Shown: one piece after another, positions 1 to 25,214 of the stretch
How positions within the stretch are numbered: the first letter of the stretch is position 1
How the letters are laid out: every line of letters starts with the position of its first letter
NCBI GenBank assembly: GCA_035250975.1
Contig: DATFEP010000053.1
Coordinates: 1-25,557 of the forward strand
Source of the DNA: Nitrososphaeraceae archaeon
GTDB lineage: Archaea > Thermoproteota > Nitrososphaeria > Nitrososphaerales > Nitrososphaeraceae
DNA: 25,557 nucleotides
Direction: 5' to 3'
Program-made: the position numbers and the translations under genes
The notes under the pieces: model-generated
What the model saw: the letters and a program-made list of their open reading frames with translations, nothing else
Told to the model about the DNA's origin: nothing
Databases searched by the model: none

Positions 1-754
<754 letters not shown>

Positions 755-14973: not shown

Positions 14974-15474
14974 ATGACTAAAGAAAGATCCTCAGTAAGA
15001 TCTGAACTCGATAAAATACTTGGAATTTGTTGTTATTATTTGATTCCAATTAAAAAACAATATTTCCTTGGAGACGGGAGTCACATTGCAATTTGTACTT
15101 TATCTAGTTTGAAACTACTTGAAAAAATTGGAAAAGATCGCGAAATTATGAATAAAATATCGATAGTCGGGAGACTACTTTCGGAGAATAGAGGGATAGA
15201 TCAGATCATAAAATTTACAGAAGAAAATAAAAAAATACATACTATTTTAATGTGTGGTAAAGACGTTAGAGGACATTTCTCAGGTCAGGCTCTGATTTCT
15301 TTGAAAAAAAATGGAATAAATAGACAGAAGAGAATAATTGGTGCTAAAGGTCCATATCCTATTTTATCCTGCACAGAAGAACAGATCGAAAATTTTAGGA
15401 ATAAAATAGAATTAATAGACAAAATCGGATTAACAGACTTTAGAAAAATAAAATCGATAGTAGCTAGTAGTTAG
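14974..15474 (+). CDS. Stand-alone MtrA-like (tetrahydromethanopterin S-methyltransferase subunit A domain) protein
   Basis: IAICTLSS, IVGRLLSENRGI, LMCGKDVRGHFSGQAL, NG...RIIGAKG..P and FR..IELID.IG. No C-terminal membrane anchor. Confidence 0.88.
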   Translation: MTKERSSVRSELDKILGICCYYLIPIKKQYFLGDGSHIAICTLSSLKLLEKIGKDREIMNKISIVGRLLSENRGIDQIIKFTEENKKIHTILMCGKDVRGHFSGQALISLKKNGINRQKRIIGAKGPYPILSCTEEQIENFRNKIELIDKIGLTDFRKIKSIVASS

Positions 15475-15800
15475 TAGTTAGTTTTTTGTCTCTTCATATT
15501 TACAGAATGTTTTTTTGAAAATTCTTGTAATATTTCGGAAGGACTCATTTCTAGTTCTATTGAAACTTGTATAACGAAATGTAGGATATCTATCAATTCT
15601 TCTTTTGCAAGTTTAAGATCAAAATCTACTGGTGTTTTCCACCACTTCCAATTTGTTAATCGTTGAAGCTCTACTGCTTCATGAATTATTGCTACAGACA
15701 AAGCTGAAATTCTATCCTCTAGTTTTTTAGGATATCTAGAAGTAGTAACATATTTTTCTAGATCCTTTTGCATTTGATAAATATAATCTAATTTATCCAT
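15471..15800 (-). CDS. Dimeric (all-alpha) dUTPase/dCTPase-like NTP pyrophosphatase
   Basis: E..EL...NWKWWK and EELIDILHF motifs of the dUTPase_2/MazG-like fold. Confidence 0.88.
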   Translation of the reverse strand: MDKLDYIYQMQKDLEKYVTTSRYPKKLEDRISALSVAIIHEAVELQRLTNWKWWKTPVDFDLKLAKEELIDILHFVIQVSIELEMSPSEILQEFSKKHSVNMKRQKTNY

Positions 15801-15897
15801 ATGGTAAATGTAAATTTCAGATATTTAACCTAATTTAGCTACATAAAGGATTTTTAAAAGATTTAATTTTTATAACACCGTTTTAATTACATTACTA

Positions 15898-16740
15898 ATG
15901 GAGTACGCTAATCCTAATGTACTTGTAGATACAAAGTGGGTAGAAGACCACCTTAATGATGACAAAGTACGTATAGCTGAGGTGGATTATGATCCAAAGA
16001 CAAATTATTTTCTTGGCCACATACCAAATTCTGTATTATTCGATTGGAAGAACGATATCAATGATCCGGATACAAGAAATATTATTTCAAAGCAAGATTG
16101 CTTGAACTTGCTACAAAAAGCTGGAATAAATGATGATACTACCATAGTTTTATACGGTGATTTTAACAATTGGTTCGCAGCTTTCGCTTTTTGGGTGTTT
16201 GAATATTATGGTTTGAAAAACGTTAAAATAATGAATGGAGGCAGGAAAAAATGGTTAGAAGAAGACAGACCAATTTCAAAAGAGATACCTACATTTACTA
16301 CTGGAAATATACTCCCTGCTGAACCAGACTTAAATTTAAGGTCTTTTTTAAATCAGGTTAAAGACTCTTTACAATCTGAAAAGACTGTAAGAATTGATGT
16401 AAGAAGTCCCGCAGAATTTAGTGGTCTGATCACGGCACCGCCCGAATACCCAACTGAACATGCACAAAGAGGAGGTCATATCCCCGGTGCTGTAAATATT
16501 CCATGGGCTAAGGCAGTAAATGAGGATGGGACATTCAAATCTGCCGATGATCTTTTAAATCTATATCAATCAGCTGGAATTACGCCGGACAAAGAAGTAA
16601 TTACATACTGCAGAATAGGAGAACGTTCATCTCATACATGGTTCGTTTTAAGACATTTGTTGGGTTATAAAGATGTAAAGAATTATGACGGGTCATGGAC
16701 AGAATGGGGAAATATGATAGCAAATCCAATAGAAAAATAA
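15898..16740 (+). CDS. Tandem-domain rhodanese sulfurtransferase (CysA/SseA/TtuD-like)
   Basis: GHIP twice, IDVRS..EF, active-site YCRIGERSS and NYDGSWTEW signature. Confidence 0.96.
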   Translation: MEYANPNVLVDTKWVEDHLNDDKVRIAEVDYDPKTNYFLGHIPNSVLFDWKNDINDPDTRNIISKQDCLNLLQKAGINDDTTIVLYGDFNNWFAAFAFWVFEYYGLKNVKIMNGGRKKWLEEDRPISKEIPTFTTGNILPAEPDLNLRSFLNQVKDSLQSEKTVRIDVRSPAEFSGLITAPPEYPTEHAQRGGHIPGAVNIPWAKAVNEDGTFKSADDLLNLYQSAGITPDKEVITYCRIGERSSHTWFVLRHLLGYKDVKNYDGSWTEWGNMIANPIEK

Positions 16741-16755
16741 AATACAATACAAGTT

Positions 16756-17451
16756 TTAAACATCTTTTTGTTTTCGTATCAAAAAATGAAAAAGATTTTT
16801 CTCTTTTCTGATGTCAACAACGGATTGGGAATTTTCCAATGACCATCTTTGAAGTTCAATATCTGCTGTCACATCATCGGAAACTAAATATACTATTTCA
16901 CCAACCTTTATTCTTGAGAACAAATCATCTAATTTCATGAGTGTCGCAAGGCATTCCGATCCGATTTCATATAATTCGTAGTCTGGAAAATACTTGAAAC
17001 ACCGAACATTCAGATCTTTTATTATTATTTTGAATTCTTCACGACAATCGTTTGAATTCTTTAGATATTTTAATTCATTTTCTAAATTTGTAGGATAAAT
17101 TGTTACAAACCAACCTTGTTCGTAAGGACTATCATTTACCAATTTCGGTTTTTCAATGATTCTGTTATTCCCAGTTTCTATTTTCCCAGAAATTGGGGAT
17201 CTTACTATTCCAAAATATTTTAAACTTTCAATTGATCCGACACTTTTTCCCTTTGCAATTATGATATTTTTTTCTTTTAATTTAACAGAGAACACTCTAC
17301 CAGATATAGATGACATTATTGGAGTTATACCTAACTTGATGGAGTTTTTATTAGAAATATCAACCCAGACAAAATTTTCCATATCATAGAGAAGATCATC
17401 TGGAAAAAAACAATTATCTATAATCACATTTCGGTGTAATTCTCGAACCAA
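16756..17451 (-). CDS. GcvH/LbpA-like lipoyl-carrier domain fused to a C-terminal TusA/SirA-like domain (probable start GTG at 17427)
   Basis: FPDDLLYD..WV, GIT, IESLK (lipoyl Lys78), SPISGKI, VNDSPYEQGW; then EIGSEC, GEIVYLVSDD..A..E..RW and FHFLIRK (TusA fold). Confidence 0.88.
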   Translation of the reverse strand: MVRELHRNVIIDNCFFPDDLLYDMENFVWVDISNKNSIKLGITPIMSSISGRVFSVKLKEKNIIIAKGKSVGSIESLKYFGIVRSPISGKIETGNNRIIEKPKLVNDSPYEQGWFVTIYPTNLENELKYLKNSNDCREEFKIIIKDLNVRCFKYFPDYELYEIGSECLATLMKLDDLFSRIKVGEIVYLVSDDVTADIELQRWSLENSQSVVDIRKEKNLFHFLIRKQKDV

Positions 17452-17818
17452 TTTGAGTCTTTATGTCCATTACGAAATATTCTGATATAGGAATAGATAT
17501 CTTGAGGATATGGTATACGCAAATGAGAATAATATTTATCTAACATTAACGTGACTGTGTAGAAAACATTCCGACGTGGTTTAAATATGATTTATTATCG
17601 ATTTATCTATTACATGTCTAATCATAAACCTTAATTATCCGTTACAAAAATATCTATGCTAAAATAATACCATATTATCTAGATCGCCACTTGTCCAAGT
17701 TGTGTAACATAAGGAATTACATGTCTCATAGTTTTCGATTTTGATATAAAATTAAAAGATAGTAAAAAAGAATATTTAATATAACATTAAAAAGCTATTC
17801 TAGTTTCTAAAAGATATA

Positions 17819-18382
17819 ATGGATTATGTTAATACTGATACAATGGATAAAATAGCAAATGAGATTAAAATATGTACCTTATGTACACTTTCAGATACTA
17901 GAAAGAATGCAGTACCTGGCGAAGGAGAATTTAGAAAAAAGTTAATGATCATAGGCGAAGCTCCGGGATTTAATGAAGATCAAAGTGGAAGACCATTTGT
18001 GGGTATGGCAGGAATGATCTTGAGAAAAACATTAATGAAATGTGGTATCGATATTGAAGATGTATTTATTACAAATATTGTAAAATGTAAACCTCCAAAC
18101 AACAGACAACCTAAGAATCATGAGAAAGATACATGTTCAAAATATCTTGCTAGACAAATCAATCTTTTAAAACCAAAAATAATATGCATATTGGGAAACG
18201 TTGCAGGCTCCTATATTCTAGATATCAAATCAATAAGTCAACATAGAGGAAAAATTTTAAGAAAGAATGGAATAGATTATTTTATAACATACCATCCTGC
18301 AGCTACAATTTATAATAGGAATCTGATTTTGGATTTTGAAGATGATATTAAGCATTTAGCGGAAATTATAAACAAGAATTAA
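17819..18382 (+). CDS. udg: Uracil-DNA glycosylase family 4 (4Fe-4S)
   Basis: CxxC, IGEAPGFNED..GRPFVG, TNIVKCKPPNNR and TYHPAA. Confidence 0.96.
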   Translation: MDYVNTDTMDKIANEIKICTLCTLSDTRKNAVPGEGEFRKKLMIIGEAPGFNEDQSGRPFVGMAGMILRKTLMKCGIDIEDVFITNIVKCKPPNNRQPKNHEKDTCSKYLARQINLLKPKIICILGNVAGSYILDIKSISQHRGKILRKNGIDYFITYHPAATIYNRNLILDFEDDIKHLAEIINKN

Positions 18383-23507: not shown

Positions 23508-25214
23508 TTATGCTCCAGCCATACCGCTTCTTAATTCTACCACCTTATGATCTTCCATTTCACTTTCTGCAGTGGCCTTGTGCATTTCTGATAATGCGCA
23601 ACCCATTTGTGCCTCTGGTTTACCACGTCTCATTAATCCTCGATACAGTCCAGCTTCTAACGTTTCACCGTGAGCTTTTTCCCACTCTTCAACTGGAATA
23701 CTGTATTTCTTTTGAATTCTATCTCTATACCACTCTGGAATAACATTGAATGCACAGAAAGGCACTATTCTAAGATCTGGTGTCAAATAATGAATATCGC
23801 ATCTTTGTAATCTTTCTAAATCTTCATTATATTTATCTTGGAAATGCATCATACCAAGGAAAAGTGATCTAACATGCCATGAACCCACTGCATCAAAATT
23901 ACGTTTTAATAATATGCTAGAAAACATCCTCGCTAAATTCAATCCATGAGGTTGCTTTGTTTTATCTACAAATTGATTTAATTTACGTACAACTTCTAGC
24001 GTTGTCCAGTATCTATTAGCACCGGAACGTATTTCGTCGGCCTTTTCTTCAAAGTATTCCAATAAGCCCTTAATATCTACAAAAGAGGTTAGTGGAGTTA
24101 ATTTTTTAGTTTGGACATCTTCGAATACATATGTACCTGCACCACAAGCAAAGTGAATAGATAACTCGTATTTTGGTTTTTTACTGAATGCTTCAATTAC
24201 ATCAGTCATTGGCATACAAGATGGAACTGGGAACCAAGAATCTGTTGAAATTTCACCATTGGTTTGTTCTTCGATTCGTTCAATACAATCAGGGATTGTT
24301 ATCCTATATTTTTCTCGTTCCTTTTTGTTCATTCTACCAGTAAGTGATACTGGTTGGAAGTTGACTGCATGAACAACATCCATGTTCTTTTGAGCATATC
24401 TAATTATTCCTCCCAATTCGTGATCGTTTATAGATTTTATTACAGTTGGAACAAAAACCACGGTCATTCCACACTTTCGTGCAGATTCAAGAGTATATGG
24501 TATCTCCCAATGGTTTTTAGGATTAGTCCGCGGAGTAACACCATCAAAAGAAAGGTAAAGATTGCTTACACCAGCTGTTCTTACTTGACGCATTGTTTCT
24601 GGAGACATTGCTAACTTGATACCATTAGTATTTAATTGAACATGATCTACTCCTTCTTCCTTCATAATTTTTATTACTTCGGTTATGTCATCGCGTAACA
24701 TTGGTTCACCACCAGTTATTTGAATTGAATTTCCTGCTATTGGTCTTTCTGCTTTAAGGGTTTTCATCATGGCTCTAATTTGTTCATAGTTAGGTTCATA
24801 GAGATATGCACCTTCAAGACCCTTTTTGACATAAAAGAAACAATACCAACATGTCAAATCACATCTGTTGGTGACTATCATGTTAGATAATCCAGAATGT
24901 GATAAATGATTTGTACATAATCCACAATTTGTTGGACATGCACATTTATCTACCATAACATTGGGAGCATGAGCACCTTTACCATCTTTCCAATAAGTAC
25001 TAAACTTTTTGTACATGTCAACAGAACCAAAGTACAATTCTTCACATTCACCATGTGATGGACAGGTCTTAGTCATGAAGACTTTACCATCCCTTTCAAA
25101 TACTTCTGCATCTAAGATCATATTACAATCCGGACATATACTTTGGGTATATCTGATGGTTTTTTTAGTTGTAGAAACCTTTTTCGTAACATTAGATATC
25201 TGTATTAATTCCAT
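23508..25214 (-). CDS. tes: Tetraether lipid synthase (Tes / GDGT-MAS), radical SAM
   Basis: N-terminal CPDC...CPSHG, CPTNCGLCTNH, radical SAM CDLTCWYC, TGGEPM, and C-terminal HFQD.YN.DLERLQRC...PFCAFN. Confidence 0.9.
   Translation of the reverse strand: MELIQISNVTKKVSTTKKTIRYTQSICPDCNMILDAEVFERDGKVFMTKTCPSHGECEELYFGSVDMYKKFSTYWKDGKGAHAPNVMVDKCACPTNCGLCTNHLSHSGLSNMIVTNRCDLTCWYCFFYVKKGLEGAYLYEPNYEQIRAMMKTLKAERPIAGNSIQITGGEPMLRDDITEVIKIMKEEGVDHVQLNTNGIKLAMSPETMRQVRTAGVSNLYLSFDGVTPRTNPKNHWEIPYTLESARKCGMTVVFVPTVIKSINDHELGGIIRYAQKNMDVVHAVNFQPVSLTGRMNKKEREKYRITIPDCIERIEEQTNGEISTDSWFPVPSCMPMTDVIEAFSKKPKYELSIHFACGAGTYVFEDVQTKKLTPLTSFVDIKGLLEYFEEKADEIRSGANRYWTTLEVVRKLNQFVDKTKQPHGLNLARMFSSILLKRNFDAVGSWHVRSLFLGMMHFQDKYNEDLERLQRCDIHYLTPDLRIVPFCAFNVIPEWYRDRIQKKYSIPVEEWEKAHGETLEAGLYRGLMRRGKPEAQMGCALSEMHKATAESEMEDHKVVELRSGMAGA

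Follow-up and report, generated by a model that had tools for sequence, protein, structure and literature searches.

What does a protein with a GcvH-fold domain fused to one of TusA fold do in an archaeon in which no glycine-cleavage partner for it is found, and what connects it to the rhodanese gene that it faces? This question is raised by a two-gene locus in a stretch of 25,557 bases (~30% G+C; contig DATFEP010000053.1 of assembly GCA_035250975.1, hereafter the window) from a Nitrososphaeraceae archaeon. The locus consists of an uninterrupted open reading frame for the fusion protein (16756–17451, reverse strand) and a convergent gene for a tandem-domain rhodanese of the thiosulfate/3-mercaptopyruvate sulfurtransferase type (15898–16740, forward strand), the two stop codons being separated by a spacer of 15 bp (16741–16755). 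A first interpretation made from the letters alone (hereafter the sequence-only reading) had proposed a relay in which sulfane sulfur passes from the rhodanese to a TusA-type cysteine and on to a lipoyl arm or to flanking cysteines of the same polypeptide. We retain the relay, for which the fusion itself, its three cysteines, the linkage to the rhodanese and a modelled binding of the two proteins speak, and give up the lipoyl arm, as the residue that would bear it (residue 78) is variable and no ligase, LipA or gcv genes were found in the genome. We think it reasonably likely that the pair is a lipoate-independent, cysteine-based carrier or relay of sulfane sulfur, in which the fusion works with a rhodanese of its own.

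Domain architecture and predicted fold

Residues are numbered throughout from the TTG that opens the 231-amino-acid open reading frame, within which a profile match covers 16765–17424. The first domain (residues 9–155; 16987–17427, reverse strand) matches Pfam GCV_H (PF01597) over residues 22–140 (E = 7.7e-26), and in an AlphaFold2 model of the whole protein, built on a 46-row alignment (mean predicted local distance difference test score (pLDDT) 93.6, predicted template modelling score 0.86), Foldseek matches it to H-proteins in the PDB, with template modelling scores (TM-scores) on the target of 0.89–0.93. The second domain (residues 156–231; 16759–16986, reverse strand) retrieves E. coli TusA of the IscS–TusA complex (3lvj_C; TM-score on the target 0.88, root-mean-square deviation 1.2 Å, 72 columns). 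Pfam, AlphaFold2 and Foldseek thus bear out the view, already part of the sequence-only reading, that one uninterrupted frame joins the two folds, and the residues singled out there are indeed where it placed them: Cys14 (codon 17410–17412), Lys78 within ESLK (17218–17220) and Cys151 (16999–17001) in the first domain, and Cys167 within GSECLAT in the second. Further residues of interest are Glu75 (17227–17229), Glu166, which directly precedes Cys167 (both codons, 16951–16956), and Asp192–Asp193 (16873–16878), all on the reverse strand. An additional cysteine, Cys136, is kept in 74 of 90 homologues.

In the model, helix 1 of the second domain starts at residue 167. By BLASTP, Cys167 aligns with the CPxP cysteine in the standalone TusA of the same genome, and Asp192 and Asp193 align with the paired aspartates of that protein, which marks them as a TusA-family feature. 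On the basis of the Foldseek match and of the Cys167 alignment, the C-terminal domain is predicted to have a TusA fold with a cysteine at the sulfur-binding position, despite an altered CPxP motif. A sequence search of the PDB for a solved LbpA structure returned just H-proteins and one TusA-like chain.

The standalone TusA, the only one in the genome, is canonical (80 amino acids; PF01206, E = 8.5e-27; contig C80, locus L002, 1477–2725). Its gene lies just after that for an F420-0:gamma-glutamyl ligase and 4 bases upstream of that for a PALP-family enzyme (333 amino acids; cysteine-synthase-like fold family), with which it may form a second, separate sulfur-handling pair.

Homologues of the fusion are mostly 223 amino acids long, their start corresponding to residue 9, here a GTG codon (17425–17427), and residues 1–5 have a pLDDT below 50. 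For these two reasons we favour the shorter start, so that the true coding sequence is probably 16756–17427 (223 amino acids); Cys14, Lys78, Cys151 and Cys167 would then be Cys6, Lys70, Cys143 and Cys159. Named members of the family come from Thermoproteota, Methanomassiliicoccales and one Aigarchaeota/Pelearchaeum metagenome-assembled genome, and public sources label relatives as 'glycine cleavage system H protein', 'hypothetical protein' or 'sulfurtransferase TusA family protein', or carry a JGI double label. A full-text literature search found no paper describing an LbpA–TusA or GcvH–TusA fusion; it did not cover the supplementary tables of PMC10332631 and PMC6067878, which may list archaeal LbpA-like proteins. 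The fusion goes unmentioned in the accessible parts of PMC10332631, PMC6067878 and 10.1101/2023.12.18.572138.

Relationship of the N-terminal domain to LbpA

LbpA, TusA and rhodanese cooperate as separate proteins in sulfur oxidation by the heterodisulfide-reductase-like (sHdr) pathway (PMC6067878; 10.64898/2026.10.01.755906; 10.1101/2023.12.18.572138; here and below these sources are cited for the accessible parts of their text). The sequence-only reading had treated as established that LbpA has an N- and a C-terminal cysteine that GcvH lacks, in agreement with Cao et al. 2018 (PMC6067878). According to a recent preprint (Kumpel et al. 2026, 10.64898/2026.10.01.755906), GcvH is acidic (isoelectric point (pI) <4.5) and LbpAs are more basic; their two conserved near-terminal cysteines (Cys7 and Cys145 in LbpA2 of Thioalkalivibrio TK90) are close enough in models for a disulfide and dispensable for ligase recognition, and canonical Lpl(AB) barely modifies proteins of the LbpA type. 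The fusion has a pair that, in the corrected numbering, stands at Cys6 and Cys143, to be compared with Cys7 and Cys145 of the TK90 protein. Its N-terminal domain has a pI of 8.7 (median over 46 relatives, 8.3), and its scores stay under both NCBIfam GcvH cut-offs (NF002270, 82.6 versus 117; TIGR00527, 65.2 versus 115.85). The best-scoring standalone relatives mostly have a Cys-Lys-Cys arrangement with Gly-flanked C-terminal cysteines, and all 14 standalone relatives that align over both cysteine columns are Cys-Lys-Cys.

A quick maximum-likelihood tree built from 122 rows and 146 columns (root placed on four gcvP-adjoining GcvH genes; support given as the Shimodaira–Hasegawa-like approximate likelihood ratio test (SH-aLRT)) gathers all 32 fusion N-domains and all 27 proteins of the Cys-Lys-Cys type (24 standalone representatives and three encoded beside a ligase gene) in a clade with a support of 96, and leaves outside it the gcvP-adjacent GcvH copies, 18 of the 19 standalone copies at class level and most of the cysteine-free relatives. 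In a 56-row subset, the fusions and the Cys-Lys-Cys proteins lie on one side of a branch whose SH-aLRT of 80.6 is not strong. With the same subset, and with groups defined once the first tree was known, an approximately unbiased (AU) test rejects the best tree in which the fusions join GcvH (log-likelihood lower by 67, p = 8.9e-5). Given the cysteine pair, the basic pI, the sister position to the Cys-Lys-Cys clade and the rejection of a GcvH grouping, we class the N-terminal domain, by sequence comparison, as LbpA-like rather than GcvH, in line with the sequence-only reading.

A cluster in the same class places one Cys-Lys-Cys protein in a recognizable pathway. In a genome of family f4, which is not an ammonia-oxidiser lineage (G001, contig C2, locus L122, 436–13025), a sulfur-oxidation cluster of the sHdr type contains an SQR-like gene, three DsrE genes, ArsR, an LplA-type ligase, a Cys-Lys-Cys LbpA, HdrC-, HdrB- and HdrA-like genes, AprAB and Sat; to judge from this gene context, the Cys-Lys-Cys member is a real LbpA. 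The same genome also carries the rhodanese–fusion pair, and both LbpA forms coexist there.

Conserved cysteines and a variable hairpin residue

Cys14, Cys151 and Cys167 of the fusion family are nearly free of variation in every set that was compared, and residue 78 is not. Among 90 full-length homologues from a search of 5.8 billion proteins, a set in which close relatives dominate, Cys14 is present in 89 (with one gap) and Cys151, Cys167 and Glu166 in all 90, and residue 78 is Lys in 85, Arg in three and Thr in two. When 1.84 billion cluster representatives (50% identity) were searched with a profile, 8,819 proteins matched at E ≤ 0.001, of which 60 reached E ≤ 1e-30; the best 150 matches include 32 two-domain proteins, which keep Cys14, Cys151 and Cys167 without exception (32/32) while residue 78 is Arg in 18, Lys in 10, Thr in two and Val and Ser in one each. 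Across 91 genomic loci, one per species, Cys14 is found in 91 and Cys151 and Cys167 in 90 each, the single miss being a gap, and residue 78 is Lys in 48, Arg in 41, Ser in one and Val in one. The triad is likewise complete in 34 of 34 family genomes that were examined singly, so the conservation on which the sequence-only reading depended holds well beyond the window.

Residue 78 changes even within genera, with Arg in a genome of the same genus (G138) and Val, Ile, Asn and Lys in four genomes of genus g2, three of which are single-contig assemblies. Arg, Val, Ile and Asn are unable to carry lipoate. Beside the three cysteines, Glu75, Glu166, Asp192 and Asp193 are invariant or nearly so. That residue 78 varies while Cys14, Cys151 and Cys167 stay invariant weakens the lipoyl-lysine reading, and this pattern indicates that the conserved chemistry of the family lies in the three cysteines and that the hairpin lysine is dispensable.

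Lipoate, glycine-cleavage and sHdr genes

The fusion gene is the sole GCV_H match in the genome to which the window belongs (G000; 2.49 Mb in 91 contigs, 94.6% complete, 2.6% contamination). Consistent with the sequence-only reading, gcvP, gcvT and shdr genes do not occur in the window. The whole 94.6%-complete genome gave no match to gcvP or gcvT, to lipA, BPL_LplA_LipB (PF03099) or the LplA/B catalytic domain (LipS1 and LipS2 were not searched), or to the CCG (HdrB) domain or DsrE, and control genomes gave matches in each of the gcv and lipoate gene searches. With six ligases of the family as tblastn queries, the best E value in this genome was 0.62, and gcvP was found in none of seven f1 and f3 genomes tested. 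As the genome is without CCG (HdrB) and DsrE matches, the role of the fusion in this organism lies outside the sHdr pathway. Class-V aminotransferases are present, the best of them cysteine-desulfurase-like (E = 8e-147).

With no PF03099 match at all, the assembly lacks even the biotin ligase that an autotroph using a biotin-dependent carboxylase should possess, which points to gaps in it; the ligase probably lies in one of these, and absences in this genome are to be taken as provisional. Three relatives from the family have exactly one PF03099 gene each, BirA-sized, with an open frame of 301–351 codons.

Elsewhere in the family, lipoate ligases are associated with a glycine-cleavage system. 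Of 81 sampled family genomes (a count that takes in the unpublished genomes G182 and G224), 68 have the fusion and 18 a ligase above the Pfam cut-off. Six ligase loci were opened (L124–L129, in G206, G188, G199, G159, G209 and G163), and in five (L125–L129) the gene order, by open reading frame sizes, is gcvH-gcvPA-gcvPB-lplB-lplA-lpd, with all six genes confirmed by Pfam in L127. The product of the operon gcvH is acidic-type and 135 amino acids long (GCV_H, E = 1e-43). Because the ligase sits in a gcv operon that has its own GcvH, lipoylation in the family, where present, appears to serve a separate, canonical GcvH. Residue 78 is Lys in 11 and Arg in three of the ligase-positive genomes, and Lys in nine, Arg in eight and Val, Ile and Asn in one each of the ligase-negative ones, a lean towards Lys in genomes that are clustered by genus and from which no statistical conclusion is drawn. 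Glycine cleavage with lipoate salvage has a patchy presence among the soil ammonia oxidisers of the Nitrososphaeraceae.

A radical-SAM gene that adjoins the fusion in three f4 loci was considered as a LipS1/LipS2 candidate and proved to encode AmmeMemoRadiSam (TIGR04337, E = 1e-99), the orthologue of which lies elsewhere in the genome analysed here, away from the fusion.

A rhodanese linked to the fusion

The rhodanese (280 amino acids) matches Pfam Rhodanese (PF00581) in two stretches (E = 8.1e-37) and has the catalytic loop C238-R-I-G-E-R (16609–16626, forward strand), in which Cys238 is encoded at 16609–16611; its best NCBIfam match is 3-mercaptopyruvate sulfurtransferase, at 116 bits against a cut-off of 250. 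The CRIGER motif and the convergent position 15 bp from the fusion gene had both been seen in the sequence-only reading and agree with the coordinates. CRIGER recurs in 52 of 52 full-length linked orthologues that were recovered.

Full-length fusions are present in 12 of 151 genomes sampled across the class (a tally that takes in the unpublished G132), distributed over families f1, f3, f4 and f6, and in none of the 80 f2 genomes. In nine of the 12, the 3′ neighbour of the fusion is a convergent tandem rhodanese, and in the remaining three, all of f3, the orthologous rhodanese lies 4.3–4.4 kb away. When scanned, species-representative genomes yielded 166 relatives; among the best 80 loci, in which linkage was counted and which all belong to Nitrososphaeraceae or Nitrososphaerales, the rhodanese is convergent and downstream in 68, with 13–242 bp between the ends aligned by tblastn. 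The 12 loci without it include two with less than 150 bp of flank and one with 858 bp, the rest having unrelated neighbours. The linkage thus extends well beyond this genome. The remaining neighbours vary by lineage (UDG and dUTPase here, a GlmS-like gene in G120, AmmeMemoRadiSam in the three f4 loci), and only the rhodanese recurs across families. No third conserved partner emerged from the loci that lack the rhodanese, which hold an unrelated radical-SAM gene with a Wyosine_form domain, CofC/CofD, HemD and pirin.

Rhodaneses ~60% identical to the linked one are found in all 80 f2 genomes. In a rhodanese tree, 16 unlinked copies form one clade (SH-aLRT 95) that includes the f2 copies (10 from seven genomes), two f5 copies, that of G122, the unlinked copy of G120 and a paralogue on contig C8 of the genome analysed here; the linked copies lie outside it. 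This phylogeny sets the linked rhodaneses apart as a paralogue lineage of their own, dedicated to the fusion and co-inherited with it.

Predicted complex of the two proteins

Three runs of a complex model of the rhodanese and the fusion gave values of the interaction prediction score from aligned errors (ipSAE) of 0.76, 0.76 and 0.75, compared with 0.00 for the best of three controls, and share at least 90% of their contacts, with a partner pLDDT of 88. Of 157 solved complexes, 116 attain the same ipSAE mark, as do two of 215 mismatched pairs, figures that are only a rough guide here, where our own alignments were used. We know of no solved rhodanese–GcvH or rhodanese–LbpA complex, for which reason template memory in the model seems unlikely. 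The model supports binding of the two proteins through the hairpin of the fusion that bears residue 78.

On the fusion side, the predicted low-error interface (residues 49, 69–70, 73, 75, 77–82, 146–148, 158–161 and 180) is made up of the would-be lipoyl-lysine hairpin and the first strand of the TusA-like domain; the rhodanese contributes residues 32, 34–35, 88, 116–117, 120–121, 123, 177, 181–183 and 185–186. Of these, Asp88 occupies, by sequence, the position that matches the catalytic cysteine in the rhodanese N-domain. Leu120, which makes more low-error contacts than any other residue, is kept in all 75 linked rhodaneses and is replaced in the 16 unlinked paralogues by Glu (14) or Ile (two); Asp123 is Asp in 74 of the 75 linked copies and in two of the 16 unlinked ones. 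We regard both as candidate specificity residues of the linked rhodanese. Residue 78 of the fusion pairs in the model with Asp32 of the rhodanese, which is near-invariant (70 of 74) and leaves too little variation for a covariation of the two positions to show. A role in electrostatic docking would agree with the basic residue, Lys or Arg, that 89 of 91 loci have at position 78.

RNA-library contigs

Six RNA-library runs cover part of the window, four of which, from four studies, were compared; their assemblies are contigs and not proof of transcription, strand or level. The rhodanese gene is covered by contigs in all four runs. The fusion gene is partly covered in three, two of which reach only its last ~95–125 nt: these are a 175-nt contig (X19; 16705–16879) with zero differences from the window and a 614-nt contig (X20; 16237–16850). 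The third run (X15) has a 791-nt contig (16468–17258; 21 differences) that extends from the 3′ end of the rhodanese gene far into the fusion gene, plus one of 151 nt (17230–17380). Some parts of the locus and its surroundings (for example, 15568–15903 and 17416–17900) are uncovered in all four runs, gaps that prove nothing.

Comparison with known systems

The fusion resembles LbpA in its GcvH-like fold, its matching N- and C-terminal cysteines, its basic pI and its sister position in the tree. It also stands beside TusA and rhodanese-type sulfurtransferases, a working relationship that the accessible LbpA literature describes and that genes and model suggest for the fusion. Unlike LbpA, it is joined to a TusA-like domain and belongs to a family in which the lipoyl-lysine is not conserved; no sHdr, DsrE, sLpl(AB) or LipA gene was found in its genome, and it is found in ammonia oxidisers not known to gain energy from sulfur oxidation. 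With TusA (E. coli TusA/YhhP, 3lvj), the second domain shares a two-layer α/β fold, a cysteine at the N terminus of helix 1 and a conserved DD loop, but it forms one chain with an LbpA-like domain, has lost the CPxP motif, scores below the Pfam cut-off and is encoded in a genome that has a canonical standalone TusA elsewhere. GcvH has the same fold, Pfam family and position of the hairpin; the fusion differs from it in the lack of gcvP and gcvT matches in its genome, in equivalog scores below the cut-offs, and in its basic pI, its cysteine pair, its dispensable hairpin lysine and the outcome of the AU test. Two-domain thiosulfate/3-mercaptopyruvate sulfurtransferases use dithiol acceptors such as thioredoxin or dihydrolipoate. 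The rhodanese here has the CRxGxR loop of these enzymes, which hand their persulfide to an acceptor protein or dithiol, and Cys14/Cys151 could be such a dithiol; unlike in those enzymes, the acceptor would be a dedicated, genomically linked LbpA–TusA fusion, an arrangement known here from the genes.

Proposed mechanism and alternatives

We suggest that the rhodanese takes sulfur from thiosulfate or a different sulfane donor as a persulfide on Cys238, and that the fusion docks on the enzyme through the would-be lipoyl-lysine β-hairpin and the first strand of the TusA-like domain, residue 78 serving docking and not cofactor attachment. The TusA-site Cys167 would take up sulfur from the Cys238 persulfide, and the Cys14/Cys151 pair of the same chain would then receive or resolve it, after which the sulfur may be delivered onward or released as sulfide, leaving a disulfide. 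The order of these transfers and the final acceptor are what we infer from the arrangement of the sites; candidate end uses are the assimilation of thiosulfate sulfur, supply to biosynthetic thiolation and the control of sulfane sulfur. Among separate proteins, there is precedent both for sulfur transfer from rhodanese to TusA and for an association of TusA with LbpA, in that Aquifex TusA co-purifies with LbpA and sHdr (10.1101/2023.12.18.572138). It is possible, and we offer this tentatively, that the fusion is a protein-only stand-in for a lipoyl arm, in which the cysteine pair, fed by the TusA site and the rhodanese, does lipoate-free dithiol/persulfide chemistry.

On the four points that the sequence-only reading had named as able to overturn it, the outcome is a TusA-like fold in the model, cysteines that do not vary, a linkage that recurs in other genomes and an N-terminal domain that groups with LbpA-type proteins in a genome without a detected gcv system. 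Several other observations weigh against the relay. The predicted interface on the rhodanese lies largely in the non-catalytic N-domain (Asp88, residues 116–123); docking of this kind may not bring the catalytic cysteine directly to the TusA site, and none of Cys238, Cys167, Cys14 and Cys151 is within the low-error interface as listed. Differences between linked and unlinked rhodaneses are not enriched at the interface either (6 of 15 positions, versus 85 of 265 elsewhere). Pfam TusA matches residues 164–227 with 25.0 bits, short of its cut-off of 28.6, and in place of CPxP the fusion has E-C-L-A-T here and E-C-[A/S]-A-[T/V] across the family. The two genes are convergent and so do not form one transcript, the RNA-library support consists of contigs alone, for which DNA carry-over is possible, and about eight of the 80 loci lack the rhodanese with enough flank to show it. 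Genus g42 is an exception to the joint inheritance of the pair, with two genomes that keep a linked-type rhodanese without the fusion or any remnant of it; in G048 of that genus (contig C119, locus L189, 1038–1225), a decayed remnant of the fusion, in which an N-terminal piece (~residues 1–30) is joined to a C-terminal piece (~182–221) with an in-frame stop, lies beside a linked-type rhodanese. Lys78, finally, is retained in the fusion protein of the genome analysed here. Because of this, of the 5% incompleteness of the genome and of the sixth ligase locus, that of the same-genus G206, which begins at lplB near a contig end and reads lplB-lplA-lpd, we call lipoylation of Lys78 in this organism unlikely and go no further.

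These last points bear on the possibility that the fusion is a lipoylated carrier, in which sulfur would pass from the rhodanese through Cys167 to a dihydrolipoyl arm on Lys78. Dihydrolipoate as an acceptor of rhodanese sulfur is old chemistry, the domain is LbpA-like, the lysine is present here and in 85 of 90 close homologues, the modelled contact places the residue-78 hairpin on the rhodanese, where an arm could reach the enzyme, and LplAB occurs in 18 of 81 family genomes, that of G206 included. We nevertheless judge such an arm improbable: searches of the 94.6%-complete genome turned up neither a ligase, LipA or a LipB/LipM-type domain nor gcvP or gcvT, 41 of 91 loci have Arg at residue 78, three single-contig genomes have Val, Ile or Asn there, Arg occurs in three ligase-positive genomes too, with Lys accounting for nine of the 20 ligase-negative ones, the ligase of the family belongs to a gcvH-gcvPAB-lplBA-lpd operon with its own acidic-type GcvH, and canonical Lpl(AB) barely modifies proteins of the LbpA type (10.64898/2026.10.01.755906). 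Part of this evidence also concerns the idea that the fusion is an ordinary H protein of glycine cleavage with an extra domain, as the GCV_H match (E = 7.7e-26) and the public names of its relatives would have it. The failure to find gcvP or gcvT in the genome, or gcvP in any of the seven f1 and f3 genomes, the scores under both NCBIfam cut-offs, the pI of 8.7, the AU test (p = 8.9e-5) and the separate 135-amino-acid GcvH of the gcv-bearing family genomes together make this almost certainly wrong.

A different use of the same partnership would be one in which the fusion binds the rhodanese without carrying sulfur, as a regulatory, scaffolding or redox-sensing protein or with a metal or Fe–S site formed by the three cysteines (with Glu or Asp). 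Binding that is predicted to occur through the non-catalytic domain, with the cysteines outside the listed interface, the loss of the CPxP motif and the (near) invariance of Glu75, Glu166, Asp192 and Asp193 beside the three cysteines would all suit this view. We consider it unlikely, given that Cys167 stands exactly at the sulfur-binding position of TusA, that Cys14/Cys151 is the LbpA pair, which is modelled at disulfide distance and suits dithiol/disulfide chemistry better than a three-cysteine metal site, and that Asp192 and Asp193 are shared with the standalone TusA and hence are a feature of that family. The genes could also be neighbours by descent only and take part in unrelated processes, as their convergent orientation without co-transcription, a rhodanese family far wider than the fusion and the loci without a rhodanese might suggest. 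This seems to us to have little chance of being correct: the pairing persists over four families of the class while other neighbours change, the linked type of rhodanese and the fusion are jointly missing in f2, f5 and G122, and the complex model passes where controls give 0.00, with Leu120 and Asp123 specific to the linked copies. Of the readings considered, we therefore keep that of a cysteine-based sulfane-sulfur relay between the rhodanese and the fusion.

Other features of the window

The window opens with a partial archaeal 16S rRNA gene (1–754, reverse strand; Rfam SSU_rRNA_archaea, 740.7 bits) that is cut at the window start and accounts for the G+C-rich first kilobase (0.49 versus ~0.30). 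Near the locus, a gene on the forward strand (14974–15474) encodes a 166-amino-acid protein that matches MtrA (tetrahydromethanopterin S-methyltransferase subunit A; PF04208, E = 3.8e-23), a match of note in that the methanogen-type Mtr complex is not expected in an ammonia oxidiser; its 3′ end overlaps the convergent dUTPase_2 gene (15471–15800) by 4 bases. Towards the other end, 23508–25214 on the reverse strand encodes a radical SAM protein of 568 amino acids whose N terminus has an HMPTM-type zinc ribbon (PF23545, E = 4.2e-18).

Implications

Across several archaeal lineages, among them soil ammonia oxidisers such as the present one, in whose genome no sHdr or lipoate genes were found, LbpA-like and TusA-like domains have been fused, the lipoyl-lysine has drifted, three cysteines have stayed fixed and a dedicated rhodanese has been kept. 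If the fusion does stand in for a lipoyl arm, the two cysteines of LbpA would be a primary sulfur-handling site in their own right, and archaea, ammonia oxidisers among them, would have a so far unrecognised route for the use or disposal of thiosulfate or sulfane sulfur. The pair offers a simple two-protein system, in which no cofactor needs to be attached, for probing these cysteines, and it points to sulfur metabolism in globally abundant nitrifiers that is masked by automatic annotation as 'glycine cleavage system H protein' or 'hypothetical protein'.

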